Of a DNA stretch of 64,000 bases, positions 3,470 through 42,314 are shown piece by piece. Numbering within the stretch: the stretch's first letter is position 1; each line of letters starts with the position of its first letter. Source of the stretch: a virus; IMG/VR virus record IMGVR_UViG_3300027994_000002, positions 1 to 64,000 of that record. One strand, given 5' to 3'. A program made the position numbers and the translations under genes. The notes under the pieces are model-generated. The model was not told the DNA's origin, made no database searches, and was given only the letters and a program-made list of their open reading frames with translations.

Positions 3470-4035
3470 ATAATCTGCTTAGGCCTTGTTTCTGCGTTTA
3501 CGCCCTGTGTGAGCCGAACTCAAGCAAGGTCCGCTATGTAGGCAAAACATCCAACCTTAAAGGCAGGTTCAAAAGGCACCTAGAAACAAAAGATGAAAGG
3601 AGCCACCTTTATAGGTGGGTGAAAAAGCTTCAGAAATCGGGAAAAAATCCAGAGATAAAGGTACTTCAGGAATGCTTTTCCGACGCAGCCGCTTACGAGG
3701 CGGAAATTTATTGGATTTCAGAATACCTGTCCAAAGGTGAAAAATTGTGCAATAAGACCAAAGGAGGGCTTGGTGCTGTTGCGCTTGGAAAAAGGCCCGG
3801 ATACTGGAATAGGGCGATTTCAAAATCGCGGAAAGGGGTTCCTTGGTCAAAGGAAAACAAGGAAATATTGAGGGATAGCCATATTCTATTGTCTCCAGAG
3901 CAAAGAGCTGAGATTAAAATCCTTAAGAAAACAAATTCCTTGTCTACTTTAGCCAAGATTTACGGAGTAAGTCCGGGAACAATCAATATCGCCGTTCACG
4001 ATTACTACTACCCCAACCGAAAGCAGGACAAATGA
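3466..4035 (+). CDS. GIY-YIG homing-endonuclease-like protein with C-terminal HTH
   Basis: Motifs CVYAL...VRYVGKTSNLKGRFKRH...YEAEIYWISEY match the GIY / YIG / R / E order. C-terminal LSTLAKIYGVSPGTINIAV looks like an HTH. The gene is visibly more AT-rich than its flanks. The start forms an ATGA overlap. Confidence 0.75.
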   Translation: MNNLLRPCFCVYALCEPNSSKVRYVGKTSNLKGRFKRHLETKDERSHLYRWVKKLQKSGKNPEIKVLQECFSDAAAYEAEIYWISEYLSKGEKLCNKTKGGLGAVALGKRPGYWNRAISKSRKGVPWSKENKEILRDSHILLSPEQRAEIKILKKTNSLSTLAKIYGVSPGTINIAVHDYYYPNRKQDK

Positions 4036-10366: not shown

Positions 10367-10367
10367 C

Positions 10368-11237
<870 letters not shown>

Positions 11238-12920: not shown

Positions 12921-13340
12921 ATGAGTTGCTATAACGGATGTCAATGCGGCTGCAACACGGGGTGCGTATCCAACACGCCCTACTGCGCTCCGATCTTGCC
13001 GCAGCAAGAATCCGTCGCCTCTCAATTGGAAAACCTTTCCACGAAGCTGTTTGGCCCCTTCACGAGAACCATCCAGAACGGGCGCGGTATTTGGACAGGC
13101 CTTTGCAGCATCACCTCAGCAATTCCTGGATTCGCCCGTTCCGATAACGAGGGGTTTATTTGCTACATCCTCCGCTACCTCACGACCAACCCCAACGCAA
13201 TGACGGGCATCGGGCCTCCGGAAGGTGTCGTGACGGCCAGTCCCGGAGCCCTTTACGTGAACACCAACGGCGGAGCCAACGCGACCCTCTACGTCAAGGA
13301 ATCTGGCGTCGCGACCAATACGGGCTGGGCAGCCAAGTAA
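12921..13340 (+). CDS. hypothetical virion-associated protein with Cys-rich N-terminus
   Basis: N-terminus MSCYNGCQCGCNTGC. C-terminus ALYVNTNGGANATLYVKESGVATNTGWAAK is a fibre/decoration-like ending. Confidence 0.45.
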   Translation: MSCYNGCQCGCNTGCVSNTPYCAPILPQQESVASQLENLSTKLFGPFTRTIQNGRGIWTGLCSITSAIPGFARSDNEGFICYILRYLTTNPNAMTGIGPPEGVVTASPGALYVNTNGGANATLYVKESGVATNTGWAAK

Positions 13341-13351
13341 AGATCAATTTT

Positions 13352-13708
13352 ATGCCTGAAACAATCAAGCTCGGTAAGATGGAGCGGGACTACTCCTGCA
13401 TGCACGAGGGTAAGCCAAAAGACGATGAGCCCCTCGTCGAACGGTTTCCAACCGTCTACATCAACCATGAAGACCTTCCGGATCTCAAGCCGGGCCAAGA
13501 GGTGACTTTTAAGGGCGTTGTTGCCTCTTTTACGGATCGTAAAGTTAGATCTAAAGAAGACGGCAAAACAGAAGTCGAAGTTTCCCGCCAATGTGAAATC
13601 GACATTCTGGAAATGACGCCCGGCGAAAAGAAGGCCGTAAAAGAACCCGAAGCAACCGATGAAGATGAAGTGGAAAAGGGGCTCGATGAGGCCTCGGAAA
13701 AGGAATAA
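13352..13708 (+). CDS. hypothetical protein with acidic C-terminus (118 aa)
   Basis: Internal ATG of the 13160..13708 ORF, lying just after the previous stop. Could be a scaffold or decoration protein; no motif found. Confidence 0.45.
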   Translation: MPETIKLGKMERDYSCMHEGKPKDDEPLVERFPTVYINHEDLPDLKPGQEVTFKGVVASFTDRKVRSKEDGKTEVEVSRQCEIDILEMTPGEKKAVKEPEATDEDEVEKGLDEASEKE

Positions 13709-17000: not shown

Positions 17001-17765
17001 ATCCCGCAGGGCGTGCGGTGCTTGGCGAACGAATACAACAACGGGGACGCCGTCATTGTCAACCCGGAAGGCATGGACAATACGGCCGTCGCTCCGGAGC
17101 CGCTCGTTAATGGAACGACTTATTTCTTACGAAGAATCGACGATGAAACCGTTGCGATTTACGACACCAAAGAAGCGGCCTTGGATTTGGAATCCACAAG
17201 CGGCCTGATTGTCGTTACCTCTGCCGGAACAGGCCAAAGCATCTTTCTTCAAATTCTTCCCGCTTTTCAGATTCAGCGCGTGGATCGCGTGTTGCTCATC
17301 AACGGCAAAACGGCCTCACAAGCCGAGCTGCCAGAAGAAACTCCCATTGGCTCGCAACCCCCGCCTCTTCGCAATGGCTATATCGATTTGTACGCTTGGG
17401 ATTACGGCCGGAAGTGCAATCTGACGCTCCTTGGGCACTATTCCCCTCAAGAGACCGAACCCTATTACCGCCGCATCAAAATTGCCCTTCATTCCACGTG
17501 GATTCGCATGCGCTACCGTCGCAAGACTTTCCGAATCACGAGCCTCAATGACTACATCCCCTTGACCTCCGAAATGGCACTCCTCTACATGGTGCGCTCG
17601 CAGGAATTGTTCCGGACGAATTTCATGGATGAAGGAGCCAAATACGAGGCCCTCGCGGTTCAGTACCTGCAAGAAGAGAATGACATCCGCCAAGGCCCCG
17701 CAACCTACCAAATTCAATTTCAAGACGATGGCGTTTTCAACAGCAAATCCTTCTGGATGACTTAA
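14052..17765 (+). CDS. large repeat-containing virion (tail/baseplate-like) protein, at least 1237 aa
   Basis: Long ORF with two families of internal repeats. The TTG at 14052 is the first canonical start. The frame is open from 13965 and an AAGGAG SD at 14003-14008 precedes an in-frame ATC at 14013, so the true start is uncertain. Confidence 0.6.
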   Translation: MGRSPQKLIFERLTEAIQLLANKGSWDPLIGFADICGGETDVRTFSLPDDVETPLAINICGQPAYMRSKWSEFHLNGLGSNRETTWTWDDQGPQPVIQDIIRPSTLLALADLKNDLGTRIRVFGHDVAGRRMREQNADGSWQDGFIIQPSLITDFPSQAVTENTTRLFVRNFSAIPVTTLVSTDEHGFRTGVAVVLTVTVGTLPSPLINGATYYVRVINENTVSLHYFAAEALSGVNPIEMTGVSGSTVIQLQDRRQVQVQTKFTSDDPLGFLEGSSVTFTGTTLPEPIVGPEIFYIHLLDDRNFTIHATQAEALSASNPLFVTTPGSNDVMANASQPVTPYTKLVFSVPHRFIQNDVVTVSNASGNLPNPLLPATNYYVRYLNELEITLHASLSDAASGNNPIILTDNGTGTSSVVKLIPATANVGSSNNINAPNSNLQPGDFVQFASSGNLPNPLLSSQIYVVVAPVSGNTFTIAQPPAISIATLAKGRANNTAIIVTAVDHGLVTGNVVNIAGLGGSGYNLNQVTITVLASNAFSYNSTGGNDAAIASLSRSRSSGIATIETAAPHGFTTGDFINVQGFGGASYNQPWVEVNVESTTAFWYNNPGVNDFGFATTFRARGPDAGLPPNIAQITTIAPHGLSTGQYVNIQNMTDVTYNNPWAQVTVVDPTNFTYAAPGGTVASTADTQGYVAIPQSDSGGLLTLPLSDGAGIVSGNLINITDTGNGVLNAVISRAFTIGFYDDWFLDASQLDTGASFKINSTGSLPGTEPSLSPSGTYYIRKEDDFTAKFFVSEAKAEDSVVRLSASRSRSSNVAQIVTQGNHGFANGDRVEISSMSDDSYNPTPYSSVAVTVVNATTFTYLNTGPDEGSTVDTAGQIIFSPINILSLGAGETDLILSRLVAATVLSNLLEVSSSAYITPGTIYQFTTSGTLPSPLVLATDYKISVINGLLQISDTSDAVIILTDIGSGEHYIQRQFDFTVDIPQGVRCLANEYNNGDAVIVNPEGMDNTAVAPEPLVNGTTYFLRRIDDETVAIYDTKEAALDLESTSGLIVVTSAGTGQSIFLQILPAFQIQRVDRVLLINGKTASQAELPEETPIGSQPPPLRNGYIDLYAWDYGRKCNLTLLGHYSPQETEPYYRRIKIALHSTWIRMRYRRKTFRITSLNDYIPLTSEMALLYMVRSQELFRTNFMDEGAKYEALAVQYLQEENDIRQGPATYQIQFQDDGVFNSKSFWMT
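15527..16650 (+). repeat. four copies of an approximately 55-aa protein repeat (A.I.T...HG..TGD.V.I......YN....V.V....F.Y...G)
   Basis: Copies lie at about 15527-15685, 15708-15875, 15935-16090 and 16471-16650. Two begin with SRSRSS. About seven further copies of a second repeat (LP.PL...YYVR...A.SG.NPI.LTD.GTG) span roughly 14650-17220. Confidence 0.6.
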
Positions 17766-21031: not shown

Positions 21032-21769
21032 ATGACACCGACCCCCGCCGCCTCTGCCGCCGTCCAGTATGCGCCAGCGCAAGCGGCGATTCAGAGCAAT
21101 TACAATTCCGCGCAGGCCCTCAACGCGCAAACGCCGCCGAAAACTTATGAGCCCGATCTGAATGAGCTCAACGATACCGCCGCCCTCCTTTCCCGCGCTC
21201 AAGTTCTCCAAAACAATCAGGCTCTAGCCTTGCGTTCTCCCGCCGCGTTTCAGGGCCAAGAACGTGCCATCGCCTCCTTAACAGGCGGGATAGAGGGTGA
21301 TGATCAATTTCTTCGCAATGCGGCCCTTCGCTCTGGACTCATTGGAGCCGCCAACCAAGGAACCGCCGGAATGGCGGGCGGTATTAGCCCGACCTCCGCC
21401 GGGGGCGTGACGGCAGAAAAGATTTACGGCAGTAAGCTCCTCGATTACCGCAACGCAAGAGACCAACAAGCATTGGGGGTCGCTCAGGCCTTACAACCCG
21501 ACGCCGCCCTTTCGCCTGCTTCTGGAATCGGATTGCAAGTTCAATCCCAACAGCAGGGCATCCAAAACCAAAACGATTGGCAGGCCTACCTCGCCAACTC
21601 CCGCCTTGGAAGCGTCAGTAATCTTCAGGGCCTGACGCAACAGGCTATGGGCCTGACGCAGGCCAACAACAACGCCAATGCCGCCGCTTCCAATGCCTCC
21701 AAGGGCCAACTTGCGGGGGCTGGCGCCTCTCTGGCTGCCGCTGGCATCGGAGCTGCCGTTATTCTTTAA
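21032..21769 (+). CDS. Q/A/N-rich low-complexity protein with Gly/Ala hydrophobic C-terminus (internal virion protein-like)
   Basis: Composition, and the C-terminal GAGASLAAAGIGAAVIL. Confidence 0.5.
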   Translation: MTPTPAASAAVQYAPAQAAIQSNYNSAQALNAQTPPKTYEPDLNELNDTAALLSRAQVLQNNQALALRSPAAFQGQERAIASLTGGIEGDDQFLRNAALRSGLIGAANQGTAGMAGGISPTSAGGVTAEKIYGSKLLDYRNARDQQALGVAQALQPDAALSPASGIGLQVQSQQQGIQNQNDWQAYLANSRLGSVSNLQGLTQQAMGLTQANNNANAAASNASKGQLAGAGASLAAAGIGAAVIL

Positions 21770-22587
21770 TGGACGCTCTCGCCAATGACCCCGTTCTGCA
21801 AGGCAAGATCAACTCGGCCGCACGAGTGATTGAAAAGTGCCTAGAGGTCTACAGAAAGCCCGCAATCCTATGCTCTTTTGGCAAGGATTCGCTTTTAATG
21901 CTCTACATGATTCGGAATTATTGTAGCGTGGATTTGCCTGTCGTTTTTTTCAAGCAACCGCACTTTGCCCGCAAGTTTGCCTTCGGGGATAAAATGGCCG
22001 CCGAACTTGAATTGGAGGTTCATTCCAATATCCCTCCCTTCGGCATCAGCTTGACCAGCAAAAACGGCAAGTCAGAATTGGTTCATCATTTTAGCCTGGG
22101 CAAGCAAACGCTAATGATGCCATTAGGCGTTCAGAGCATCGAAAGCAAAGCAAAGTGGCTGTGCGCGACGGAATCGTTGCTCTCAGGTCCATTTGGGACG
22201 TTTGGCTGGCCCTGGGACGTTGCTTTCTGCGGGCATAAAAGCTCCGACGTTGACCCCCTTCAGGGGCAGGTCCCGCTTTCCGTTGACATTCATCAAATTG
22301 AGGGCTCCTGCCACCTCGCCTACCCGCTGAGGCATTTTACAGATCAGGATGTCTGGCGGCTGACCAAAGCCTGGGATATTCCCGTCAATCGCTTGCGGTA
22401 CGGGAACGCGGATCAGCCTCAAGACGATACGGAGAATTATTTCAACGAAGACTATTTTCCTTATTGCATGAAATGTTGCGATCCCAATCAACCCGATTTT
22501 GTGACTTGCCCTAAAACGGGATTGGAGGTAACAAATATCCATCGCTCCATTCCTCAAATTGACCCCAAAAAAGCCTACTGCTCATGA
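21769..22587 (+). CDS. PAPS-reductase / PP-loop ATP-pyrophosphatase family protein
   Basis: PAILCSFGKDSLLMLYMI matches the SGGKDS PP-loop context of the PAPS_reduct family. A Cys-rich C-terminus is present (CMKCCD...CP). Confidence 0.7.
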   Translation: MDALANDPVLQGKINSAARVIEKCLEVYRKPAILCSFGKDSLLMLYMIRNYCSVDLPVVFFKQPHFARKFAFGDKMAAELELEVHSNIPPFGISLTSKNGKSELVHHFSLGKQTLMMPLGVQSIESKAKWLCATESLLSGPFGTFGWPWDVAFCGHKSSDVDPLQGQVPLSVDIHQIEGSCHLAYPLRHFTDQDVWRLTKAWDIPVNRLRYGNADQPQDDTENYFNEDYFPYCMKCCDPNQPDFVTCPKTGLEVTNIHRSIPQIDPKKAYCS

Positions 22588-23447: not shown

Positions 23448-24950
23448 ATGGAAGTCCAAATCCAAAATCTTTCCAGGCCTTCCAATGGAATTCCCGCGAT
23501 TCTTCCGTTGGCCTATCTTGCGCCCGGGCAAATCGGGGGCCCTGATAGCGGCGTGGAGGCTTTTGGCGCGGGCATCAAAGAAGGCCAAGCTGTCGTTGCT
23601 CCACTTGCGGAAATGGGCAACTATTTGACGCAGTATTCTTCTCCAGAATCCGAAGCAAAAAGGAAAGCGGCGATTGCGCAGGCGGGCCTAGTGGAAACAA
23701 CCGCCGGACAGGAAAACGAGGCCGCAAAAGCCACCCCAGACTTGCCTTTGGCGCAACGCCAATTCCAAGGGGAGCAAATTGCCTCCGGCCGCACCCTGCT
23801 CCCGGCTCAGACCAATTTGGCGCTGGCTCGCATGGATTCTGAGGGCCGCATTCTTCCCGCGCAAACCGACTTAACCCTGGCAAAGATTGGCTCGGAAGCG
23901 CAATTACTGCCCGGGCAAACCGAGGCCAGTGCGGCGGCCAATAGAGCCGCTTTACTCAACGCCAACAACGTTCTCAGCACGACGCCCTCTTACGCGCCAA
24001 ATATGACGCAGGATGAAATCATGCGCAATGAGGCCGCGAAGAAAGGGGCCTTAAGCCAAGCGGGATTCCAGAGGGAAGTTGCCATTGCCTCCAATCCATT
24101 CCTCGCCTCCGATGGCATCACGGCACCGGAGGGCAAGTACGTTTCTAATGGGAAACTTTTGGAAGACACCGTGACTCAGCGGAACGTGCAGGGAGAAGAC
24201 GGGAAAATTTACATCCAGAACGTTTGGTCTCACTCCGGCAAGCCTGTCAGCTACCTGCAAGATCAACTTTCTGGAACCAACGCAACAATCGAAGCCGCAA
24301 ACGAGAGGCAGGGAAGAGGTATTGCCGCTCGCTCGCCGACGTACGGGGCCGAGGGGGCGCAAGTCACGCTCACGCCCGCTGAATCCACACAAACCAACAA
24401 GGCCATTCAAAATTTCAAAGGCCGAGGCGACGTTCAGGCGGTAGTCAAGATTACTCCTTTGGTGGATCGGGCGTTGTCTCAAATCAATGCTTCCAGGGAC
24501 GCCAAAACAGGTCTCGTTTCCGTGGACGCCATGCTTTCTGCCGCCCGCGCTTTCCGAGGCCAGGTCACAGATTCCGAAATGAAACAATTGAGCAATGCTG
24601 GAGGCTTGCAGCAAAACCTCTATCAGCTTTTCCATATTCTGGACGGTAAGAAATTTGACGAAAGAACAATGTCTGACCTGACGGCCTCTTTGTTGGCCGT
24701 GCGCAAAGAAGGCGATGAGTTTCTCAATAACCGCATCTTGCCCGATTTCAAGAAATCCCTGCCATTGAATGCTCGGCCTATTGCCGACGATCTTTTTGGT
24801 CAAGTGGCCTATCGCGACGCTTCTCACGGCGAGCAGGCAGCGCAACCCGGAGAGCCGCCGATCATCGCGGATAAAACCGCTTACGACGCGCTTCCCAAAG
24901 GAACTCCCTATCGGGCTTCCGACGGCCAACTCTACATCAAGGGTCAATAA
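23448..24950 (+). CDS. hypothetical internal/ejection-type protein (500 aa)
   Basis: Three tandem 18-aa repeats (LLPAQTNLALARMDSEGR / ILPAQTDLTLAKIGSEAQ / LLPGQTEASAAANRA) at about 23800-23940. Stop-start overlaps on both sides. Confidence 0.5.
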   Translation: MEVQIQNLSRPSNGIPAILPLAYLAPGQIGGPDSGVEAFGAGIKEGQAVVAPLAEMGNYLTQYSSPESEAKRKAAIAQAGLVETTAGQENEAAKATPDLPLAQRQFQGEQIASGRTLLPAQTNLALARMDSEGRILPAQTDLTLAKIGSEAQLLPGQTEASAAANRAALLNANNVLSTTPSYAPNMTQDEIMRNEAAKKGALSQAGFQREVAIASNPFLASDGITAPEGKYVSNGKLLEDTVTQRNVQGEDGKIYIQNVWSHSGKPVSYLQDQLSGTNATIEAANERQGRGIAARSPTYGAEGAQVTLTPAESTQTNKAIQNFKGRGDVQAVVKITPLVDRALSQINASRDAKTGLVSVDAMLSAARAFRGQVTDSEMKQLSNAGGLQQNLYQLFHILDGKKFDERTMSDLTASLLAVRKEGDEFLNNRILPDFKKSLPLNARPIADDLFGQVAYRDASHGEQAAQPGEPPIIADKTAYDALPKGTPYRASDGQLYIKGQ

Positions 24951-27900
24951 TGCCATCTCCTTTTGGCGACACCCCCATCTCCTCTCCAGGCGCAAGCCCT
25001 TTCGGCGATACGCCGCACGCGCCAGAGCAGCCAAAAGCTTCTCCTTTTGGAGACACGCCAACGGCACCCGATTCCCGCGAAATCAAAATCGCTCAAGCTG
25101 CAAACGACCCCACTTTTGATCCCGTTCAGGTTTATGCCTCGGTGGATCCCATGTCCGTGAGCCAGCAGCTCAACAATCCATCCCAAGACCCCGAAGAGCC
25201 TGTCTTCAAACAAGCAGCGGAAGAGTTCAATCGCATGATGGAAGTGAGGCAATTTGCCGCCGATGTCTTGAAGCATAAACTGGCCATGAAGGAAGCCAAT
25301 GCGCCCAAGACTTTACTGGGGAAGGTTGGAGAAAATGCGGCCTACGCGGGCGATGTTGCCCTCAATCTAGTGCCCCATAAAACTCCTGAAGGGGAATGGA
25401 GCTCAGGAGGTCTGCTCCACGGCGCAGAAGCGGTTGTCGACATGGTCGCGGCGGCTCCTGGGGCCGCAATCAATACGGTCGTTCAAGGCGCGGGCGACCT
25501 TGGCCTTATCGATAAAAATTCCCCCGCCTACCAAACCGCCGCCCTCAAGAATTACGCCTCAGGGGAAGGCGTTGCCAATTCCCTTTACAACCCCATCACA
25601 GGCCGAGCCGCAGGAAACATTCGGGCCGTCGGACAAGAGCTCGGCGATTGGCTTTCCGGAGGGCCTAAAACGGACGCCGAAATTCATCGCTATCTGGAAT
25701 CTCGAGTTGCCAACCTCCAAAGCCGAGCCAAAACAGAAGAGGCGATGACAGGAGCCTTGAAAGAAGTCGTTGGAGCGCCGGAGGATAGCCAACTCACAGA
25801 TGAATCGAGGGCCATTAAGGAATTTGCCCAAACCAATGCCGAGTTCGCCGTCGATCCCATGAACGTTGCCTTCCTTGGAGCCGGGAGAGCGATGACGGGA
25901 ATCGCTCGTGCCGCAACGCCTGCCATTCGGGCTGCCGCCGTTTCCCCTGTTGTTATTCAGGCCAAAAACCTCGCCGCACAAGCCGCTTCCAAGGGCGTTC
26001 AGGGATTCGGCAAAAGCATTAATACGGTCGGGAATATTGGCGCAAGTTCATTGGGCCAAGCCGCAACCAACATCGCTTTTGGCGCGCTCGCCGGTAAAGA
26101 GCTGGGCTCCGAGCTGGCGGGAGCTGCCGCTGGAGCAATCCTAGGAACCAAGGGGCACGGTATTGCGGGCCCCCTCTGGAATTCGGTCTCTCGAGCCGGG
26201 GGCGCGTTGGAAGGGCGCGGGGCCGAGCTTGCCCCTGATTTCATTGGCCCTGTTCGGCCACCGGGAACACCGGGGGCGTTGTCCAAAATCGCGGGCAACC
26301 CTCTGGCTAAAAATGCCCTCGCTGGAGCTATCTTCTCCCTGCCCTTCCTCGCCATTGCGCCTAATGCGGAAGAAGCTGCCAATACGCTTGGTATTGGGGC
26401 GGCCTTTGGAGTCCTCGGCGGCCTTTCTTCCAAGAATTACAATTACGGCCTGCGTCAGATGGGGCAGAAATACTTTGCGGAACTTGCTCCGGAAAGGTAC
26501 GGGATGCCAGCCGAAGTCAACGGAACTCCAGTCGATCTGGATGCCCTTCACGAACGGGCCATTAAGCAACTCACGCCCCAGCAGCAACTAGCCCTGCAGT
26601 CCATGCGCGGCTTTCTTCCTGGGGCTCAAATTTACGCCCTCAGCCCTCACGACCTAGGGCAAGTCGCTACGCAGGCCGGGCTACCGACGGCCTCCGGTAT
26701 TTACGATGCCCCTCAGATCACGACGCAGCTCAACATTGGGGGCAAGCCCCAAACCGTCATCCTGCTTAATGCCGGCCTCGCGGCCTTGAATCATGAAAGC
26801 GGGCATTTCATTTGGGATAACCTCACCCCCGAGCAGCAAGGTAAGCTCACCAATCAGGTTGCCCAAGTGGACCCCAAAATTCTTCAAGACGCCTATCTGA
26901 AGTACACGCTCGCCCACGCCAAGGCCTTTAATTTTCAAACCGCGCTGCCTAAAAACGCCCTGGCGATTGACGCCTCCGGAAATCCCGTGATAGATCCAAG
27001 CCTGAAGCCGGAGGAAAAAGCCGCCGTTCAGCAGGCGTTGGATTACTGGAATAGCCATCCTGATGGTCTTGTCAAAGAGTACATCGCAGAGAATTTCAAC
27101 GATCTTGCCAATCGCAAGGGCGGCGAAAAAGAATCCCTCGCCGGACATACGGGCAACAAAAGCCTCGCGCAAGAATTTGAGGACGCCTTCAACTCGGTGA
27201 AACAAAGACTCGGAGGCAAAGGCCGCGAATCTGCCCTTGGATTCCAGGTGGATACTAAACTGCAAGATCAAATGCGGGCTGTTTTGAAAGACCTTGCCGC
27301 ACAGCGCAAGCGGGAAGGCATTATAACTCCAAGCCAACCTCCCCCAAGTGCCCCAGGAGCTCCGATTCCGCCCGTAAGCTCCATTGCCCCGCCTCCAGCA
27401 GCAGGAGCGCCTATAGCGGCCCCAACGGCCTCCGCCTCCACGGCCGAACAAACCCGTGTTCAGGGCAATTTTGATGATGCCGCCAAAGCCGGAAAGACTC
27501 TCAAGCTTAACAAGGCGCAAATTCAACAGGGCCTTGAGTCTGCCAAGAGGGATGGCCTCACGGAAACGGAAGATATCGTCAAGCGGATGGTGAATCCCGG
27601 CTATTATCCCGACGGATCCAACATTCTCCCGGGCGGGCAAGTAGAGTCGGCCCTACCATTGGCCAATATCGAGGGCGCAATCGAGCAGGGTAAAGCGAAT
27701 GCCGCCGCTCTTTCTTCTCAGGCGCAAGGCAGGGATCCTAATTTTGACCCCAACGTTAACGAGGTGATCAAACCCCTAGCCAACGAAACCCTCGGCGCAA
27801 CGCCTGATCAAATCGAGGCCCTCAAAGCCAAAGGCTACACACAGGCCCAAATTGATGCCATGCAGCCAAGAGAGATCGAGGCCATTTTAGGCGGTCAACT

Positions 27901-30900
27901 GGGTAACATTCGCGTTCAGTCGGGACAGGGCCTCAAGGCTTCCATTGATCCCTTTGCTCGAACGGGAATCCCCTCCAAAGTCCCGCCGCTGAGCGCCTCG
28001 GGAGGGCTGCCTATTGTTGGCCTGCGGCAAGTGCGAGATCGCATTGTGGATGCCGAAGGCAATATCTCTCAAGGGCCTGTCAAAAAAACCCTTTCCGGTC
28101 GCGCTATCAATATCAATGATCCCGCCGAGGTGAAGCTCGCAAACGATGCCGCAAGGGATTCCGGCAATCCAGATCAATTTGAGAATAACCTGAATGCCGT
28201 CCAGGACGCCATTGCCTCCGGAAGAGAAATCAACTTTGCCTATCGATCCAGCAAATCCGAGGTGGAGGGCTCCCCAACGAATAAAGAGCGCGACGAGGCA
28301 CAAGAATTGTCCGATCTTGGGTTATCCCTACGTGAGGCGGTTCAAAAAACCTTCACGCCAACCAATTTTGAAGTTGATCCAGCAAAACTGGAGCCTGTGT
28401 TCAGTGAAGCAAGTGCTCAAAATGCCATGGCGCGGGCCGCTGAAAAATGGCCAAATCGTCGCGCCAACTGGAACCTATCCGCCTTCCGGGACCTCAGCGA
28501 ATTCAATGCCGCCGCAATGGAAGTCGCCAGGGCCAGCGAGGAAGGACGCCCGATTCAGGGCCTGAACGCCAAACAGATTGGGGCCGTTCGTGACCTTCTA
28601 GAAAAAGAAAACAAGGTTCGCTTCCTCATCAAAGGCTATTCTCAGGACAAGGTCATTGCCAACGCAAAAAACCTTTCCGAGGCAATCGAAGCTTCTGGCC
28701 TGAATTCAGATCCACAAGTCGCTCGCGCCCAGGCCTACCTGAAAAGCGGCGAATGGGTTCAAGATTTAAAAGACCGAAACGAAAACATGGCCCACGGCTA
28801 TCGCGGAGACGGCCAGCCCTTTTTGGATTCTCGGGGGATCGATCAATCTGAAGCTCGTCGCGGATCCGAAGGGGCTCCTACACCTAAAATCATCCCCGAC
28901 GAGCGCATTCAAGTTCTGAACGTCCTGGAAGGAGGAACCAGCGGCAAGTACTGGCCTGAGGCTAGAGAGAATGCGGCGACCGCCGGAAGAGATCCTGTTA
29001 CCGGAAAACCAGCCCAATCCACCAACCCGCTTCAGGCCAAACTGGAAAGCCTGGGCAAAAACCTCTTCCTCGACCGCGCAGGTCGTCGCATTGAAGGCCT
29101 CGGGGACATTGTATCCCCTGCCAGTGAAACGCTCCGCCTGGACCGCGTCGAGGACGCCAGCGGGCAGGCTCCAGTTGAGCTACCGCCCTCCAATTACGCT
29201 CAGCGAGCGGCAGGCTTCATGCCAGAGGCCAACGAGCCTAATAGGCTTGTCAATGAATCCGATTTCACCCATACTAACCAACATGCCAAAGCCCTTAGCA
29301 ACCTTGGATTCACCGCAAGAGAAGAAACTAACCGTTCAGGAAATGTTCGGTCAGGCGGCAGAAACAGCGATGGAGGAGGGCAAGAAATTGACCCATACAC
29401 AGGCACTCGCCCAGTTGCGCCGGAACAGTGGCTACAAAGCTACGTCGACCACCTCTCGTCCGAAGCGGGCAATGGTTCCTACTCAGGCGAAGGCAATCAA
29501 TCCCTCCTCACTCACGCCGAAAACAGCGGGTCCCTTGTCCCGCCTGTAAAAGTCGAAAGATTACAGTCTTTCCCTGGAGGATCCGGCGTTGAACATGATG
29601 TCTACTTCCCGCCGACAGCCAAAGGCCAAACCCAGAAAGTTTACAAGATTACAAAACCGGGAGCCCACGGTTTTAGCGGAGATGAAATTAGCTATGTCAA
29701 GTATATCGATAACCTGAACAAACTGACGGGCGGCAAGCTGGGGGGCGAAATCTTGGGCGTCGCTGAGCAAAGCAAAGTGGAAGACCCTTGGGTCGTGGAC
29801 GATTATCTAGAAGAAGGTGTTTGGCCTGGAATCGTAACCAAATGGAATTACATTCCAGGTAAGGTCCCTGGGCCTCTTTTTGAATCCAAGCTCAAGAACA
29901 CCTACGGCTTCGAGAAGACAGGCCTGAATGAATGGACGCACAAAGACACAGGAGTCGTCTTGAAAGACGCCCATAAGTCCAATTTCATCGAGAACAGTAA
30001 GGGCAAGCTAATTCCCATTGATGTCCATGTCGAAGGCGACGTAACTAAGCCAATGTTTATGCCCGCGGCTGAAGGTTTTGAAAATAAAAGTTCATTGAGG
30101 GAAAGATATACACCGGGAGAACCCGTTAGGCATCGCATTTCAGGCTGGCACGCAACGCTTGCGGAACCGGATGAAATTATTTCCATTCTTAAAAATGGAT
30201 TAATTCCAGGCAAGCGAGAAGCCCCGCAAGGCTGGCCCGGGGAATACAGCGGAAAAGGGATTTATATTCACCAAAGATTTCCTGGCCATGAACTTGAAAA
30301 CGGCTTAGCAGATGGAATTCCTTCAACGGCATTAATTGAACTCAAAGACAATAGGCGATGGAATGAATTGGTTCCAGACGAAGAGGTTGGCGATCCAGGG
30401 GAACTCGCCGCAAGCATAAGGGATGGAACACCAATAGCTGTAGGGGGGGGCTTTGACGCTGGATCTATCAAAAATATATGGCTTCCAGATGTTCCTGCAT
30501 CTCACGAAATCGCAAAAGAAATCGAGAAAATCGCAGAAGAACAAAAGATCATCGTGCCTCCTATTATTTTTGAAAAAAAGGCCAGCTTTATGCCTGAAAC
30601 CGAAAATGGGTTCGATGATTCTATCGATATTCGTAAATCGTACGGAGGAATACTACTCGGGAATGGAAAGTACTATTCCGCAGCAATTGGAGAGCAAGGC
30701 CATGGGAAAGCCTACGATGAAATATTTAAAGAATACGGATTTCCAGCTAAAGACTTTAATGTGTTTGATGAAATCAACGCCGTTAGAATCGTGGATTCAA
30801 AGGGGCGTAATACAATTTACGCGGAATCCTTGAGCAAAAAACCAATATCCAGAGACCAAAAAGAATGGTTGCTAAATCAAGCGATGACGCACGGAAGGAA

Positions 30901-32455
30901 ACTCGTTTTTGATAGCGGAAGTAATTCCAGAGAAATCTATGACCCCAAAAAAGCTGAATTCATGCCCGAAAGCGAACCCATTGAAGGAGAACAAAGGCCT
31001 CTCGCCAATGCAGGCTTCGGGCGCGAAAATGAACTCCATGAAGAAAATCAACCAGCAAATCCCCTCAATTCCGCCGAAGCGTCGCCCGGAAACAATCCGG
31101 ACAGGCAGGCCCTTTCTGCCCGAGAACTTTCAACCCGCTCCAAAGCGCACTACCGGCAATTCATCCGTCAATACGAGCCCGAAGCCCGCCCTTTCATCGG
31201 CCAATTTCTAAAGTCTACTCAAGAGGAATTGCATTCTCTTTCGCCTGAAGATAGGCGGGCGGCCTACGAAGATCTCGTTAATAAGAAACTGCAAGGCAAA
31301 GGCCCAGAAGCAATGGAAATCGCCCAAGGTGAGCTGGGCTACGTGTTGCCAAGCGAAGGAGAAAACGCCAGCGGCCCCTTCGGCCTCACAGTAGAAGAGG
31401 AAGCCCCTTTCTTTGAGGCCGTTGGGATCAATCGCATGGAGGAGAGTGACCTGCCGGAAGCCAATCCCTCCCACCCGTTCATTGATCTCACAGGCGAATC
31501 TTTGAAAGATTTTGAGCTTACTCCCGCCCAATCGGAGCTTGTTGTTCACCCGGTCAAGACAATTCTCAATAAGCTAACGGAAGCGAAGGCTTCCAGCGAG
31601 CTCCCCGAGACGCTTTCCGCCGCCGAGCTCGGCGTTACAACGACTAATATCGAATCGGAGCACCTCGACGCCTTTGACGCGCATTTTGGGAAGAACCAAT
31701 GGGTACTCAAGCCGTTTGATGTGGATAAATCCCTTCAAGGCCAAGGCATTTATTTGCCTGAGAATCTAAGGCGTCTTGTTGCAGGTGAAAAAGCCTCCTA
31801 TAACAGAGGCTATTCCGAACAAGGCTCTGGTAGCGTGGAATTGGCAAAAGAGCACATGCAAGCTGATATCGCCTCCCACGGCATCGAGAATTACATGGTT
31901 CAAAAAAGGCTCGACTTGGACGGGGAAACCCCGGAAAGCATTGCCGCCGGAGAAACGATTCTTCCAGGTGAAATGCGCGTGCATGTCTGGTGCGACATGA
32001 AAGGCGAACCACACGTGATCCCCTACGCGACCTTTGACAAACGGCTCGCCGACAAAAACAATCACACGGCCTTCGGTTACTCCACCAAGGCGACCAAAGC
32101 CGCTGAAAAAGCGGCCTACAAGGCCATCAAAGCCCTGCCTTTAGAAGATCGCATCGGTTCTTTCTTTGGCCCTGATATCGTCCGCCTCAAGGACGGTAGT
32201 TACAAGCCTGTCGAGCTCAACCCGACCTACGTTCGAGGCCAACACGAACCCCTTCCTGGAGAAGAAGAAAGCACGGGGTCAGCCTCCGGCTATGCGGGCT
32301 ACCCAACAGCCATGGCGGCAATCATCGCCTTTCAGCGCGGCGAGCTTCCTTTCCACGCCCAGTTTGCCCTCGAGCAATTGGAGGCAACCCTGCCTAAAAA
32401 GCAATGGCCCCAAGCGACCGAAGAGGAAATGGCCCTCTCCGGCGCTCAGTTTTAA
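24950..32455 (+). CDS. giant multi-domain 'polyvalent' protein (2501 aa): HExxH peptidase + kinase-like + PARP/ART-like + ATP-grasp-like modules
   Basis: Uninterrupted 7.5-kb ORF with a TAATG overlap to the upstream gene. Domain motifs are listed as separate entries. Confidence 0.8.
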   Translation: MPSPFGDTPISSPGASPFGDTPHAPEQPKASPFGDTPTAPDSREIKIAQAANDPTFDPVQVYASVDPMSVSQQLNNPSQDPEEPVFKQAAEEFNRMMEVRQFAADVLKHKLAMKEANAPKTLLGKVGENAAYAGDVALNLVPHKTPEGEWSSGGLLHGAEAVVDMVAAAPGAAINTVVQGAGDLGLIDKNSPAYQTAALKNYASGEGVANSLYNPITGRAAGNIRAVGQELGDWLSGGPKTDAEIHRYLESRVANLQSRAKTEEAMTGALKEVVGAPEDSQLTDESRAIKEFAQTNAEFAVDPMNVAFLGAGRAMTGIARAATPAIRAAAVSPVVIQAKNLAAQAASKGVQGFGKSINTVGNIGASSLGQAATNIAFGALAGKELGSELAGAAAGAILGTKGHGIAGPLWNSVSRAGGALEGRGAELAPDFIGPVRPPGTPGALSKIAGNPLAKNALAGAIFSLPFLAIAPNAEEAANTLGIGAAFGVLGGLSSKNYNYGLRQMGQKYFAELAPERYGMPAEVNGTPVDLDALHERAIKQLTPQQQLALQSMRGFLPGAQIYALSPHDLGQVATQAGLPTASGIYDAPQITTQLNIGGKPQTVILLNAGLAALNHESGHFIWDNLTPEQQGKLTNQVAQVDPKILQDAYLKYTLAHAKAFNFQTALPKNALAIDASGNPVIDPSLKPEEKAAVQQALDYWNSHPDGLVKEYIAENFNDLANRKGGEKESLAGHTGNKSLAQEFEDAFNSVKQRLGGKGRESALGFQVDTKLQDQMRAVLKDLAAQRKREGIITPSQPPPSAPGAPIPPVSSIAPPPAAGAPIAAPTASASTAEQTRVQGNFDDAAKAGKTLKLNKAQIQQGLESAKRDGLTETEDIVKRMVNPGYYPDGSNILPGGQVESALPLANIEGAIEQGKANAAALSSQAQGRDPNFDPNVNEVIKPLANETLGATPDQIEALKAKGYTQAQIDAMQPREIEAILGGQLGNIRVQSGQGLKASIDPFARTGIPSKVPPLSASGGLPIVGLRQVRDRIVDAEGNISQGPVKKTLSGRAININDPAEVKLANDAARDSGNPDQFENNLNAVQDAIASGREINFAYRSSKSEVEGSPTNKERDEAQELSDLGLSLREAVQKTFTPTNFEVDPAKLEPVFSEASAQNAMARAAEKWPNRRANWNLSAFRDLSEFNAAAMEVARASEEGRPIQGLNAKQIGAVRDLLEKENKVRFLIKGYSQDKVIANAKNLSEAIEASGLNSDPQVARAQAYLKSGEWVQDLKDRNENMAHGYRGDGQPFLDSRGIDQSEARRGSEGAPTPKIIPDERIQVLNVLEGGTSGKYWPEARENAATAGRDPVTGKPAQSTNPLQAKLESLGKNLFLDRAGRRIEGLGDIVSPASETLRLDRVEDASGQAPVELPPSNYAQRAAGFMPEANEPNRLVNESDFTHTNQHAKALSNLGFTAREETNRSGNVRSGGRNSDGGGQEIDPYTGTRPVAPEQWLQSYVDHLSSEAGNGSYSGEGNQSLLTHAENSGSLVPPVKVERLQSFPGGSGVEHDVYFPPTAKGQTQKVYKITKPGAHGFSGDEISYVKYIDNLNKLTGGKLGGEILGVAEQSKVEDPWVVDDYLEEGVWPGIVTKWNYIPGKVPGPLFESKLKNTYGFEKTGLNEWTHKDTGVVLKDAHKSNFIENSKGKLIPIDVHVEGDVTKPMFMPAAEGFENKSSLRERYTPGEPVRHRISGWHATLAEPDEIISILKNGLIPGKREAPQGWPGEYSGKGIYIHQRFPGHELENGLADGIPSTALIELKDNRRWNELVPDEEVGDPGELAASIRDGTPIAVGGGFDAGSIKNIWLPDVPASHEIAKEIEKIAEEQKIIVPPIIFEKKASFMPETENGFDDSIDIRKSYGGILLGNGKYYSAAIGEQGHGKAYDEIFKEYGFPAKDFNVFDEINAVRIVDSKGRNTIYAESLSKKPISRDQKEWLLNQAMTHGRKLVFDSGSNSREIYDPKKAEFMPESEPIEGEQRPLANAGFGRENELHEENQPANPLNSAEASPGNNPDRQALSARELSTRSKAHYRQFIRQYEPEARPFIGQFLKSTQEELHSLSPEDRRAAYEDLVNKKLQGKGPEAMEIAQGELGYVLPSEGENASGPFGLTVEEEAPFFEAVGINRMEESDLPEANPSHPFIDLTGESLKDFELTPAQSELVVHPVKTILNKLTEAKASSELPETLSAAELGVTTTNIESEHLDAFDAHFGKNQWVLKPFDVDKSLQGQGIYLPENLRRLVAGEKASYNRGYSEQGSGSVELAKEHMQADIASHGIENYMVQKRLDLDGETPESIAAGETILPGEMRVHVWCDMKGEPHVIPYATFDKRLADKNNHTAFGYSTKATKAAEKAAYKAIKALPLEDRIGSFFGPDIVRLKDGSYKPVELNPTYVRGQHEPLPGEEESTGSASGYAGYPTAMAAIIAFQRGELPFHAQFALEQLEATLPKKQWPQATEEEMALSGAQF
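26792..26806 (+). other. HExxH zinc-peptidase motif inside the giant ORF (codons 615-619)
   Basis: Codons cat gaa agc ggg cat encode HESGH, in the context LNAGLAALNHESGHFIWDNL. Confidence 0.5.
29552..30040 (+). other. protein-kinase-like module inside the giant ORF
   Basis: FPGGSGVEHDVY (Gly-loop-like), KVYKITK (Lys), VLKDAHKSNFI (catalytic-loop-like D..N) and LIPIDVHV (DFG position). Confidence 0.5.
30128..30400 (+). other. PARP/ADP-ribosyltransferase-like (H-Y-E) module inside the giant ORF
   Basis: SGWHAT..IISILKNGLIPGKREAPQGWPGEYSGKGIYIHQRF...ALIELK parallels the PARP pattern hGS..IL..GL......G..fGKGIYFA...E. Candidate catalytic residues are H1734, Y1772 and E1797. The Y-E spacing is shorter than in PARP1. 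Confidence 0.45.
31697..32230 (+). other. ATP-grasp-like module at the C-terminus of the giant ORF
   Basis: QWVLKPFDVDKSLQGQGIY, YMVQKRLDL, GEMRVHVWCDMKGEPHVI, and FFGPDIVRLKDGSYKPVELNP follow the order of ATP-grasp motifs. Confidence 0.55.
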
Positions 32456-39342: not shown

Positions 39343-39807
39343 ATGCAACACCTTCAATCTGACGTCCAACATTTCATGGAACTTGCCCAGCAAGAAACAC
39401 CCAAATATCCCTTCATTCCAACGCCGGAGGTTCGTAAACTCCGGGCAAAGTTGATTCTCGAAGAAGCCCTCGAACAATGCCAAGCGCTCGGCGTCGAGAT
39501 TACAACGACAGCCATCGGCGCTGCCCTTAAGCTGGATGAAGCAGGACTCCAATTTCACCCCGTCAACCAGCCTGATATCACCCTTATTGCAGATGGAATC
39601 TGCGACCAACTTTACGTTTCCATTGGAACCGGCGTGGCCTTCGGCCTCGATCTAGCACCAATCTGGAAACTCGTGCATGAAGCCAACCTGGCCAAGTTCG
39701 GGCCCGGCTCCTATCGCCGCGACGACGGCAAGCAGATGAAGCCTCCAGGATGGGTTGCGCCGGATGAAGCCATTCGCCTCGAAATTCAATCGCAGGTTCA
39801 CGCCTAA
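39343..39807 (+). CDS. mazG: MazG-like nucleoside triphosphate pyrophosphohydrolase
   Basis: RKLRAKLILEEALEQCQALGV and ADGICDQLYVSIGTGVAFGLDL..IWKLVHEANLAKF follow the EExxE / D..y / h.sN..K pattern of all-alpha NTP-PPases. Confidence 0.6.
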   Translation: MQHLQSDVQHFMELAQQETPKYPFIPTPEVRKLRAKLILEEALEQCQALGVEITTTAIGAALKLDEAGLQFHPVNQPDITLIADGICDQLYVSIGTGVAFGLDLAPIWKLVHEANLAKFGPGSYRRDDGKQMKPPGWVAPDEAIRLEIQSQVHA

Positions 39808-39811
39808 AACT

Positions 39812-40588
39812 ATGTCCAAATCACCTGAAAATGGAGCCGCCTTAAAAGGCGCAGCTCACGAACTCAACCCCCGCAAAATCACGCCTCAGCAACTCAAGGC
39901 TATCGAGGACTCCCACAAGGCCTATGGCGACCTATCCGGCGTAATCTTCAACCGCCGCACGCGTAAGCAACTGGGAGGCCACCAGCGCGTTAAAATCATC
40001 GAAGAAGGCGCGGAGGTGCAATGCAAATACTTCCCGCAAAAAGACGCCCAAGGCACCGTCGGAATCGGCTACGTCATTTCCAAGAACATCGGCCGCATTC
40101 CCTATAGAGAAGTCGATTGGCCGGTCGAAAAAGAGCATGCCGCAATGATCGCCGCCAACAGCCACGGCGGGGAATGGGATGATAACCTGCTCCGCAAAAA
40201 CCTAATCCTCATATCGGAAGGAGAAGGCGAAAACGAGGTGGACGCCGGAACCCTGGGCCTGCAAGACGAATTCATGGAAAAGCTGATGCGCGGGGCCGAC
40301 TTGGAGCTCAACGTGCAAGAGCAGGAAGCGAAGGGGCTTATCGAGCCTTTGACAATATCGGAGGTGAAGAACTTGCCTAGCCAAACGAGCATGTTGCAGC
40401 TCTTCTACACAATCCAGACGCGGCCTCCAATCGTACAAGGCCTGAAGGAGTTGCAGGTGCTTTTAGGCACGGCAAACATCAGCGATACGGTTGAAAATCT
40501 GTATCGCTTCTGCCTCAAAAACAAAGAGGCCCTCCAAGACTGGAAAGAGCTTGACAAAAAGCCTAAAGAGGATAAGATCGGCCTATGA
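39812..40588 (+). CDS. ParB/sulfiredoxin-like N-terminal domain protein
   Basis: SGVIFNRRTRKQLGGHQRVKIIEEG resembles the ParB-N 'dG.hR' box. The internal ATG follows the mazG stop. Confidence 0.5.
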   Translation: MSKSPENGAALKGAAHELNPRKITPQQLKAIEDSHKAYGDLSGVIFNRRTRKQLGGHQRVKIIEEGAEVQCKYFPQKDAQGTVGIGYVISKNIGRIPYREVDWPVEKEHAAMIAANSHGGEWDDNLLRKNLILISEGEGENEVDAGTLGLQDEFMEKLMRGADLELNVQEQEAKGLIEPLTISEVKNLPSQTSMLQLFYTIQTRPPIVQGLKELQVLLGTANISDTVENLYRFCLKNKEALQDWKELDKKPKEDKIGL

Positions 40589-41481
40589 AGATCATCCACC
40601 TAACCGAACAAATGCCGGACGAGGATGTCGAACGCCTTGGCGGAACCATGCTGGAATCATCAGCCTACGATATTGTCATCACGGAAGACTGCGATGTCTT
40701 CAAGCCTGAAGGCACGCCGCTCCTCAAGTTCCGCAAAGGTGTGATCCCTGCTGAAATGTGCCTCAAGACCTTTCCGATTTGGGAGGAGGCCGCAACGCCA
40801 ACCGACAACCGAGGCATGGCCGCCGGTGGAGTTCGGGAAGCCAGGCTCAAAAAAGACGGCACGAAGGAAAAACGCACGCGCACCAAGCAAGTGAACAGTG
40901 GCATTATTGGTTTCATGGACGGAAACCCAGCCATTCCCTATTGTAGGCTCACGGCCTTTAATGCAGCGAATATGGATAAATTCCAAGAGTGTATGCCAAT
41001 GATAACGCTCGTGGACAAATTGTTCTCGGAAATCATGCCCGATAGGCATAAGGCGCAAATGGAATATCACTCCAGGACATCTAATGATTTCAAAATCCCT
41101 GGGACGTCCTTTACCACCTTAACCGTCAACAAGAACTTTAGGACGGCGATCCATACCGATAAAGGGGATTTAAAGCAAGGATTCGGAGTCATGGCAGCCC
41201 TATGGAAAGGTAAGCACAAGGGCAGCGTTCTTTGCTTCCCTAAATTCAGGGTCGCCGTGGACATGCAAACAACCGACCTCCTTTGCGCAGATGTCCATGA
41301 ATTCCATGGAAATTCTGCGACCATCGGAATTCCAGGAACCTGGACTCGCATCAGTCTTGTGTTCTACTTCCGCGAAGCTATAGCTTCTTGCGGCACGGCA
41401 GAACAAGAGAGACTCAAAGCCATCACTCGAACTGAAGCGGCCTACGCTCGGCAAGACGCACAAAAAGAACTGCCTCTATGA
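40585..41481 (+). CDS. TET/JBP-family 2OG-Fe(II) nucleic-acid base dioxygenase
   Basis: HxD in TAIHTDKGD (nt 41152-41160), a distal His in DVHEFHGNS, and TRISLVFYFRE (nt 41347-41370), which closely matches the R.SLVFYQH strand of TET enzymes. ATGA overlap. Confidence 0.75.
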   Translation: MKIIHLTEQMPDEDVERLGGTMLESSAYDIVITEDCDVFKPEGTPLLKFRKGVIPAEMCLKTFPIWEEAATPTDNRGMAAGGVREARLKKDGTKEKRTRTKQVNSGIIGFMDGNPAIPYCRLTAFNAANMDKFQECMPMITLVDKLFSEIMPDRHKAQMEYHSRTSNDFKIPGTSFTTLTVNKNFRTAIHTDKGDLKQGFGVMAALWKGKHKGSVLCFPKFRVAVDMQTTDLLCADVHEFHGNSATIGIPGTWTRISLVFYFREAIASCGTAEQERLKAITRTEAAYARQDAQKELPL

Positions 41482-42314
41482 GCTACGAAATCATTATTCC
41501 AAGCCACCGCAGGCCGCAGGCTTTGCTGAAGACGCTTTGCCAATTGCCGAACGAAACCGAAATAACCATTGTCTTCAGCGACCAAGAAGACCTAGATGAA
41601 TTTTACAAATTTTCTCCAGAATTATGGATCAAGCATTCTTGTGTTGTTAGTGGATGCAAGAGCCTGAAAGAGAAATTCGAGTTCATTCACAACATGCCAA
41701 AAATAGGCAATAAAGTGGTCATTGTAGAAGATGACATCGAAGCCTTCCTTGTCAACGTTCAAGGCAAGCTTGTGAGCATGAGCCCAGAGCGCGTAGGTCA
41801 AATGTTCGAGGAAGGATTTGAGGCCGCACGCCTATCCGGCTCCAAAATCTGGGGGATTGCCCCCGTTGCCAATCACTACTTTATGGAATGCTCAGTGGAG
41901 CCAAAACGCCAGAAGACTAGCAAGCTTAAGCTCTGTATTGGCTACTGCTGGGGCTACATCGAAGAGAAGGACGAGCGCATGGTCCCCCGAACCAGCAACC
42001 GGGCCGACGTCGAGCGCTCCCTCCGCTTCTACGTGCGCGATGGCGGCGTGGCCCGGATGGATTGTTACGCCGTCAAAACAAATCCCCGCACAAACCAAGG
42101 AGGGCTCCAATCGGAATTCACCTTGGATCAGCGCATTCAGGCCAACAAAGAGAGCGTGGTCTACCTGCTCAAAAACTTCCCTCGCCTGGTCGAAATCAAC
42201 ACCAAAAGAGACCGTGCAGGCGGCTACGAAGAACTCACCTTGGCAAAGATTTTCGACGACAGGCCTAATCGTCTCAACCTCCTTAAGCTCCTTGGATCAA
42301 AATTATGGGATTAA
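41478..42314 (+). CDS. GT-A-like glycosyltransferase (TET/JBP-associated type)
   Basis: MSYEIIIPSHRRPQ (N-terminal GT-A strand) and VVIVEDDIEAF (DxD). Translationally coupled to the dioxygenase gene. Confidence 0.5.
   Translation: MSYEIIIPSHRRPQALLKTLCQLPNETEITIVFSDQEDLDEFYKFSPELWIKHSCVVSGCKSLKEKFEFIHNMPKIGNKVVIVEDDIEAFLVNVQGKLVSMSPERVGQMFEEGFEAARLSGSKIWGIAPVANHYFMECSVEPKRQKTSKLKLCIGYCWGYIEEKDERMVPRTSNRADVERSLRFYVRDGGVARMDCYAVKTNPRTNQGGLQSEFTLDQRIQANKESVVYLLKNFPRLVEINTKRDRAGGYEELTLAKIFDDRPNRLNLLKLLGSKLWD

Follow-up and report, generated by a model that had tools for sequence, protein, structure and literature searches.

Why would one and the same tripeptide stand at the boundaries between the C-terminal modules of a giant phage protein? 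This question is raised by a stretch of viral DNA of 64,000 nucleotides (nt), positions 1 to 64,000 of the IMG/VR record IMGVR_UViG_3300027994_000002 (hereafter the window), in which the open reading frame (ORF) at 24950..32455 on the + strand encodes a phage polyvalent protein of 2501 amino acids (aa) and 268 kDa (hereafter the giant protein). An earlier note on this DNA had drawn attention to four copies of F-M-P, followed by E or A, in the C-terminal part of the giant protein, and had offered proteolytic maturation sites, a repeated docking or linker peptide and recombination seams between domain cassettes as explanations. From comparison of the giant protein with its relatives, we propose that the motif, which reads F-x-P in the family as a whole, represents the processing sites of a phage polyprotein and that these sites are probably cut by a zincin-like peptidase embedded in the same chain. 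On the sequence evidence, we consider this proposal a strong possibility that falls somewhat short of being probable. The relatives were collected by an exhaustive HMMER search and comprise about a dozen proteins, all of which are metagenomic singletons on phage contigs of 53-67 kb.

F-M-P and the modules of the giant protein

Translation of 24950-32455 showed that F-M-P occurs exactly four times in the 2501 aa, at F1423, F1703, F1880 and F2004 (nt 29216, 30056, 30587 and 30959), and the positions and contexts given for these copies in the earlier note were exact. The lengths of the pieces between them (280, 177 and 124 aa) were likewise reproduced, except that an inclusive count gives 498 aa for the last piece and not 497 aa. 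From the composition of the protein 0.072 copies are expected, four copies were not reached in any of 20,000 shuffles, and no tripeptide of the protein is more enriched than FMP (55-fold). The Poisson probability of four copies is ~1e-6, or ~0.009 after correction for 8000 tripeptides, and only two other FMP are found in the long open frames of the window. Tripeptides are short and many of them are implicitly tested, which would favour chance or a compositional artefact as the origin of the four copies. The corrected probability, obtained from this protein alone, and the independent recurrence of the motif at non-homologous boundaries in the relatives P0008, P0051 and P0017 both argue against such an origin, and we rejected it as having a negligible likelihood.

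At the four sites the codons are TTC/TTT-ATG-CCA/CCC/CCT. Phe and Pro are thus not encoded by the same codons throughout, the nucleotide stretch that all sites have in common is ~11 nt long (TTYATGCCNGA), and a repeat search around the four sites found nothing beyond partial identity over ~11-17 nt. Given these differing codons and the lack of a longer DNA repeat, selection acts on the peptide. A repeat or recombination signal at the DNA level was rejected, as the shared DNA is too short. The ATG of the motif could also be regarded as an internal start, from which the modules would additionally be made as separate proteins beginning with Met-Pro; all four sites have ATG-CC, and a Met-Pro start is also seen in the giant protein and in the products of several other genes of the window. 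The homologous junctions of relatives, however, read FRP (P0007 and P0015) or FSP (P0051) and hence contain no start codon, and the conserved Phe precedes the putative start. A consistent ribosome-binding sequence was not found at the sites, which is a weak test in a genome that seldom shows one. We therefore rejected internal initiation as very improbable. A fifth FMPE (13349-13360; INFMPETIK) was found in the ORF at 13160-13708, the first ~60 codons of which are Arg-rich and do not look coding. This copy is probably spurious, since the gene likely starts at that Met (MPETIKLGK) or ten codons later (MERDY).

The giant protein consists of a conserved N-terminal part of 149 kDa, with short repeats, Gly/Ala-rich hydrophobic segments, an HExxH region and a conserved core, and of a variable C-terminal array that follows the core and contains a kinase, a DarT-like ADP-ribosyltransferase (ART), a 14-kDa orphan module and an ATP-grasp, all encoded on the + strand. 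The conserved core (27905..29215; aa 986-1422), which is common to P0006, P0051, P0133, P0140 and P0003, ends with ELPPSxYAQRAAG and is parted from the array by junction 1 (F1423; 29216..29224). A hydrophilic linker of ~35 aa, which starts at junction 1, precedes the Kinase-PolyVal-like module (29321..30055; aa ~1458-1702). At junction 2 (F1703; 30056..30064) the kinase alignments stop and the ART alignments begin. The ART module (30089..30580; aa 1714-1877) is of the H-Y-E type (GWHAT1732, GIYIH1770 and VPDEE1808), and junction 3 (F1880; 30587..30595) lies four residues past its last strand. Module 3 (30596..30958; aa 1883-2003), which matches no known family, is followed by junction 4 (F2004; 30959..30967), the start of the stretch with the highest hydrophilicity in the C-terminal part, and the ATP-grasp-like module (31427..32359; aa ~2160-2470; WVLKP2251, MRVHV2342 and VELNP2421) lies beyond it.

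The earlier note had held that each piece matches one recognisable module. This is true of the kinase and ART pieces and, by hallmark motifs, of the ATP-grasp piece; the 124-aa piece, which the note had itself labelled unknown, has no known family. The kinase module of the giant protein scored 21 bits, below the threshold, against Pfam Kinase-PolyVal (PF18762); the module is homologous to P0007 (phmmer E = 1e-36), the kinase of which passes PF18762 at 54 bits. For the ART module, an AlphaFold model built with 14 free-standing homologues gave predicted local distance difference test (pLDDT) scores of 70-98 for most of the domain, and a Foldseek search with this model retrieved DarT (E = 2.6e-4), Tpt1/KptA and pertussis toxin S1, with DarT and Tpt1 being the closest. 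The ART label thus holds, as these folds were matched and the H-Y-E residues are present. The ATP-grasp label is supported by the hallmark motifs hhhKP, ExRVH and hELNP and by weak R2K_3 (PF14243) matches in some homologues; a profile of the ATP-grasp homologues retrieved nothing meaningful from the PDB sequences. The C-terminal half of module 3 is 40% identical to the C-terminus of P0006. A likeness of module 3 to residues 1798-1921 of P0051, which had been seen by eye, received no support from BLAST and is not claimed. With its kinase, ART and ATP-grasp-like modules, the giant protein carries at least two unrelated effector enzyme domains.

That F-M-P marks the boundaries of these modules was borne out by four independent kinds of evidence, namely alignment ends, natural protein termini, the AlphaFold model and composition. 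In phmmer alignments with 150 homologues, the kinase alignments end and the ART alignments begin within ~20 residues of F1703, the ART alignments stop 20-40 residues short of F1880, and the core alignments (P0003, P0006, P0051, P0133 and P0140) reach the first motif via ELPPSxYAQRAAG-F-x-P. Free-standing ART homologues of ~170 aa have a Met1 that falls no more than ~10 aa from F1703. In P0012, P0076, P0090 and P0109, the last residue is the one just ahead of F1880, and a fifth homologue (P0039) ends one residue later; a free-standing end in KFHEVSNA, for example, aligns where the giant protein reads IIFEKKAS-FMPE. Similarly, P0006 ends with RTIYDPKSK, 2 aa before the position of F2004, where the giant protein reads REIYDPKKAE-FMPE. 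The AlphaFold model places F1703 and F1880 in coil of pLDDT <50 on either side of the confident ART domain; the model of F2004 had no informative alignment behind it. By composition, F1423 and F2004 each open a hydrophilic, acidic stretch. It should be noted that MAFFT alignments in which the multi-module query was mixed with short homologues stacked the kinase on the ART and were discarded; a query-anchored phmmer alignment and a single-module alignment were used instead.

Variation of the joint peptide among relatives

Conservation at the boundaries of homologues had been named in the earlier note as a check, and in the relatives the motif was found to recur both at the same boundaries and at additional ones. 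What is kept are Phe and Pro, while the middle residue varies by lineage (M, R or S). The fourth residue, described as E or A, is not conserved, as E follows Pro in 10 of 31 sites and is replaced elsewhere by K, D, S, A, V, H, Q, G or P. FMP is present in three copies each in P0003 and P0008, in two copies each in P0006 and P0133, and also in P0140 and P0011. FRP is present twice each in P0007 and P0015, once after the kinase, as KPMFRPE or KPLFRPD, and once elsewhere. FSP is present five times each in P0051 and P0017 and once in P0032, at the start of the ART module. At junction 1 the relatives have FMP, except for P0051 with FSP, and at junction 2 they read KPMFMP, KPMFRP or KPLFRP. In P0051, the core ends with AAGFSPK at the equivalent of junction 1, four further FSP are present, and the Pfam kinase (1450-1612) and ART-PolyVal (1658-1790) domains lie between FSP1365, FSP1635 and FSP1798. 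Within one protein the middle residue is near-uniform, but it differs between lineages, which have FMP, FRP or FSP.

Two proteins of a more distant lineage, P0018 and P0031, have the same build, with N-terminal repeats and HExxH at ~aa 637. Their junction peptide is P-LVNQ-[SNK], which is present in 7-8 copies and brackets the ATP-grasp of P0018.

The cassettes found at the motif also differ from one relative to the next. Their order is kinase-ART-module 3-ATP-grasp in P0001, kinase-short segment-ATP-grasp in P0003, kinase-module 3 in P0006 and small domain-kinase-ART-PolyVal-module-tail in P0051, with the first F-x-P dividing the conserved core from the variable array. The flanks travel as well: KPMF.P, upstream, moves with the kinase, and FMPE with its acidic linker, downstream, moves with the ATP-grasp, so that P0003 shares with the giant protein a cassette of FMPE, an acidic/Pro linker and the ATP-grasp. 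These observations would suit an F-x-P that is mainly an evolutionary seam, that is, an in-frame connector for the swapping of cassettes with little biochemical role at present. Against this stand the shared DNA, which at ~11 nt (with the other codons differing) is too little for homologous recombination, and the retention of Phe and Pro through synonymous change. Moreover, the concerted switch among M, R and S implies present-day selection on the peptide and not a relic. We consider a mere seam improbable. The recombination seams suggested earlier find support at the protein level, where the content differs at the motif, but not at the DNA level.

In the segment of P0051 that lies between its first two FSP, ahead of the kinase (aa 1300-1364, on contig L003), ~65 aa are present that are missing from the giant protein; we would guess from their sequence that they are beta-rich. 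Further giant phage proteins, which have single modules in common with the giant protein, each possess a highly enriched short peptide of their own, in 4-8 copies between modules: RGHRYCxxPxxGxVPC in P0010 and P0108, NANPEGCNQ[YH] in P0044 (a protein with a C39 peptidase and, below threshold, a match to MuF), NxFCATGQGGGVDPxC in P0148 and [KE][TA]LRxKYRK in P0115. Junction peptides that are specific to each protein may thus be a general property of polyvalent proteins.

A putative embedded peptidase and the role of the joints

Upstream of the core, the giant protein contains a predicted zincin-like peptidase region (26627..27169, + strand) with a beta-hairpin, a helix bearing HESGH (nt 26792-26806; aa 615-619) and a helix bearing EYIAE (aa 710-714). 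In the structural model, HESGH lies in the helix that follows the beta-hairpin, and a conserved E[YF]xAE helix is found ~95 aa downstream. In an alignment of nine relatives that are 16-48% identical to the giant protein, just five columns are invariant, and the H, E and H of this motif account for three of them. HExxH, or HExxxH in the case of P0133 and P0140, is present at aa 480-615 in every one of the nine complete F-x-P proteins with this build.

What has been observed is the motif with its statistics, its exposure and placement at boundaries, its conservation, the concerted way in which it varies and its presence together with HExxH; cleavage itself, the protease, the bond and the timing are what we propose. 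A short exposed peptide that is present at the joints, is kept by selection and changes in concert suggests recognition by one co-evolving factor. A protease would be the most economical such factor, with the embedded HExxH domain as the obvious candidate. Zincin-like peptidases have been predicted to process polyvalent proteins, with no sites given (Iyer et al., 2017; PMC5512222). In the mechanism that we propose, one exposed F-x-P peptide joins each cassette to the next and would serve as the recognition and cleavage site of a single cognate protease, for which the embedded zincin is the likeliest candidate. With cuts at or beside Phe, the cassettes would be freed as enzymes, either while still in the capsid or once ejected into the host. 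A cut before Phe would yield fragments of 149.4, 30.6, 19.4, 14.0 and 54.9 kDa. Acyl-shift autoproteolysis of the HF-S type known from Nup98 was rejected, as Met or Arg at +1 is unable to act as the nucleophile.

Several observations weigh against this proposal. No Pfam peptidase or LPD model and no PDB structure corresponds to the HExxH region. No match to Peptidase_M78 was found around HExxH in Pfam at E <= 1, a profile of the nine relatives did not retrieve IrrE from the PDB at E <= 10, and the best PDB profile matches of the region had E = 0.075 or weaker (snapalysin). A Foldseek search with the model of the region gave no significant PDB or peptidase match, and BFVD returned an uncharacterised phage protein only. 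Zincin membership is therefore put forward at the level of the signature, as neither Pfam, PDB sequences nor Foldseek confirmed the fold. The motif takes the non-canonical form HExxxH (HEFAGH or HEAGGH) in P0133 (aa 591-596) and P0140 (aa 481-486), which could represent a variant zinc site or an inactivated peptidase; both proteins retain F-M-P junctions. The site itself is short, with three residues whose flanks show only a tendency to K/R at -3/-4 and to acidic residues at +4 to +7. One FSP of P0017 lies inside the peptidase region itself, and the position of junction 1 in P0007 reads NLRP instead of FRP. The relatives are all known as metagenomic singletons, and the correlation between motif and lineage is based on about a dozen proteins, some of which are close relatives. 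Finally, the virion RNA polymerase (vRNAP) of phage N4 carries HExxH and yet is packaged unprocessed (PMC5512222, PMC13434306).

The same data on position, exposure, conservation and uniformity would also fit an uncleaved F-x-P that acts as a hinge or docking peptide for one common partner, with the protein resembling beads on a string. The partner could be the protein's own N-terminal part, a component of the capsid, portal or ejectosome, or a host chaperone or peptidyl-prolyl isomerase. Co-evolution with any single partner would yield lineage-specific variants too, and N4 vRNAP, as a giant ejected HExxH protein that remains unprocessed, is in keeping with such a role. However, three residues with a variable centre would make a weak binding motif, and no particular partner can be named. 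The existence of free-standing modules with termini at the motif further indicates that tethering is unnecessary for function, which counts against docking. On this evidence we regard an uncleaved hinge or docking peptide as unlikely, albeit by no means a minor alternative to processing.

If the joints are processing sites, a wider proposal can be made, which we regard as possible but on the whole doubtful, namely that a group of uncultivated phages of 53-69 kb uses a true polyprotein strategy, in which a single ejected giant protein would bring along its zincin and a private cleavage code. The code would be F-M-P, F-R-P or F-S-P at every joint, with P-LVNQ perhaps as a fourth in the sister lineage, and the protease and its sites would co-evolve. 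The kinase, the DarT-like ART, the ATP-grasp and the orphan effectors would be released inside the host right after injection. A cut before Phe would also leave a destabilising N-terminal residue, and the effectors would perhaps be short-lived by design.

Polyvalent proteins occur widely among phages and conjugative elements. A joint of three residues that is uniform within each protein, switched as a set between lineages and located at natural termini makes the processing prediction of 2017 concrete. If our proposal is true, it would show how one gene can let a phage deliver several enzymes for host takeover, establish what an uncharacterised peptidase family is specific for and provide a rule for splitting giant phage ORFs into functional units. 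The pairs of proteases and sites (FMP, FRP, FSP and LVNQ) might then also serve as orthogonal tools.

Genomic setting and comparison with known systems

The giant gene is the last of a + strand block in the window that also holds tail-fibre-like genes, and it is followed by a DnaB helicase gene and, further downstream, by replication and recombination genes, with no immunity genes. The giant protein is thus very large, multidomain and sited between tail-fibre-like and DnaB helicase genes. In the window, the tail fibre genes (collagen-like and K1-lyase-type) are at 8252-11237, and the + strand block upstream of the giant gene includes a gene for a protein of ~1237 aa with a ubiquitin-E1 FCCH-like domain (E1_FCCH; 14052-17765) and a PAPS-reductase-like gene (21769-22587). 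The gene order ahead of the giant gene is E1_FCCH protein, PAPS-reductase-like protein, two small genes and a 500-aa gene. This order is matched on the contigs of P0051 and P0006. The giant gene likewise closes the + strand block with tail-fibre-like genes on the contigs of P0051, P0006 and P0008, among which are L003 (the P0051 contig) and L004. The positions of the E1_FCCH and PAPS-reductase-like proteins are also conserved on L003 (1-2448 and 7014-7865) and L004 (1-2412 and 6549-7388). The position of the gene suggests that the giant protein is packaged and ejected. Neither a prohead protease nor a capsid gene was recognised among 40 further ORFs of the window.

The N-terminus of the giant protein has a triple repeat, SPFGDTP (24956..25060, + strand; aa 3-9, 16-22 and 31-37). 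In the same place, the relatives have 2-3 copies of other short aromatic/acidic/Pro peptides, among them DPYA, F[DN]PDAF[LI], [IL]LDL[AS]EP, KPWExF and DLFDA, which were found among P0006, P0007, P0008, P0015, P0018, P0051 and P0133. The N-terminus could therefore carry a repeated signal that is conserved in kind and not in sequence, such as a signal for packaging, portal docking or ejection.

The exact protein is encoded by a 68.8-kb JGI contig and by a Logan contig. At the DNA level, no relatives of the window were found among GenBank phages; at the protein level, GenBank phages contained none except for matches to the ART module in phiRSL1 and Listeria phage LIS04, and a PHROGs search with the giant protein gave no match. 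A wider homologue search with the whole protein, the core alignment and aa 1380-1720 returned the query itself or nothing, and a search for related loci found none among viral contigs besides the contig of P0140 itself and none among metagenome contigs. Against genome contigs, the conserved core gave only a weak match of 80 aa, to a 435-aa ORF in a metagenome-assembled genome of the Chitinophagaceae (Bacteroidota). Most predicted gene starts in the window, such as those at 2735, 8252, 24950 and 34014, have no recognisable Shine-Dalgarno sequence. The scarcity of Shine-Dalgarno sequences and the weak match to Chitinophagaceae are a hint of a host that makes little use of them. Elsewhere in the window, three adjacent genes at 39755-42314 (ParB-like/methyltransferase-like, queuine tRNA-ribosyltransferase-like [phrog_24024] and glucosyltransferase-like) suggest a DNA modification module, and a nucleotide-sugar epimerase gene has a homing-endonuclease-like ORF (3454-4035; phrog_314, E = 8.5e-17) upstream of it.

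The picornavirus 3C, potyvirus NIa and coronavirus Mpro proteases are embedded in polyproteins that they cut at a recurrent consensus site, and this polyprotein strategy is otherwise typical of eukaryotic RNA viruses. The giant protein resembles these polyproteins in that one consensus is present at every junction, is uniform per genome and variable between lineages, and in that a putative protease is part of the same chain. In contrast, it comes from a bacterial DNA phage, its putative protease is a zincin and not a chymotrypsin-like Cys/Ser protease, its products would be host-directed effectors and not replication proteins, and its cleavage is proposed from sequence.

A functional analogy, and only that, can be drawn with ImmA and IrrE (M78, COG2856), of which ImmA cuts F95-M96 in an acidic exposed loop and IrrE cuts L106-R107 (PMC6868357, PMC8960796), bonds that parallel F-M-P and F-R-P. 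These are HExxH enzymes of phages or integrative and conjugative elements with a specificity for one bond, which follows a hydrophobic residue and lies in an exposed loop. They act once on a separate repressor, however, and not on several joints of their own chain, and the giant protein has no detectable similarity to M78. In prohead-protease maturation, packaged or ejected proteins are also trimmed at a short recurrent consensus, which is L/I-x-E for T4 gp21 and S/A/G-x-E for phiKZ/SPN3US (PMC10052503), and three of the four sites of the giant protein read M-P-E. Yet the family keeps Phe and Pro and not Glu, and a Glu-specific prohead protease of the T4/phiKZ type, which had been named earlier as a possible cutter, is accordingly disfavoured. 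The pre-toxin junction motifs of polymorphic toxins, VENN in CdiA and PxxxxDPxGL in Rhs (PMC3482391), are short peptides that divide a constant region from exchangeable C-terminal cassettes, as does the first F-x-P. They differ in that F-x-P is repeated between several cassettes of one chain, no immunity genes follow it, and its DNA conservation is too short to guide homologous recombination.

The closest comparison is with the polyvalent proteins themselves (PMC5512222), which are very large phage proteins that, like the giant protein, combine unrelated effectors of the Kinase-PolyVal, ART and R2K-type ATP-grasp families; an HExxH metallopeptidase-like domain, in the giant protein a putative one, accompanies them. 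No junction or cleavage motifs of polyvalent proteins are described in PMC5512222 or in the later searchable literature. The giant protein differs from those polyvalent proteins in that its HExxH region has no counterpart among the Pfam peptidase and LPD models, and in that it has a defined F-x-P joint, which varies in concert and in a lineage-specific manner.

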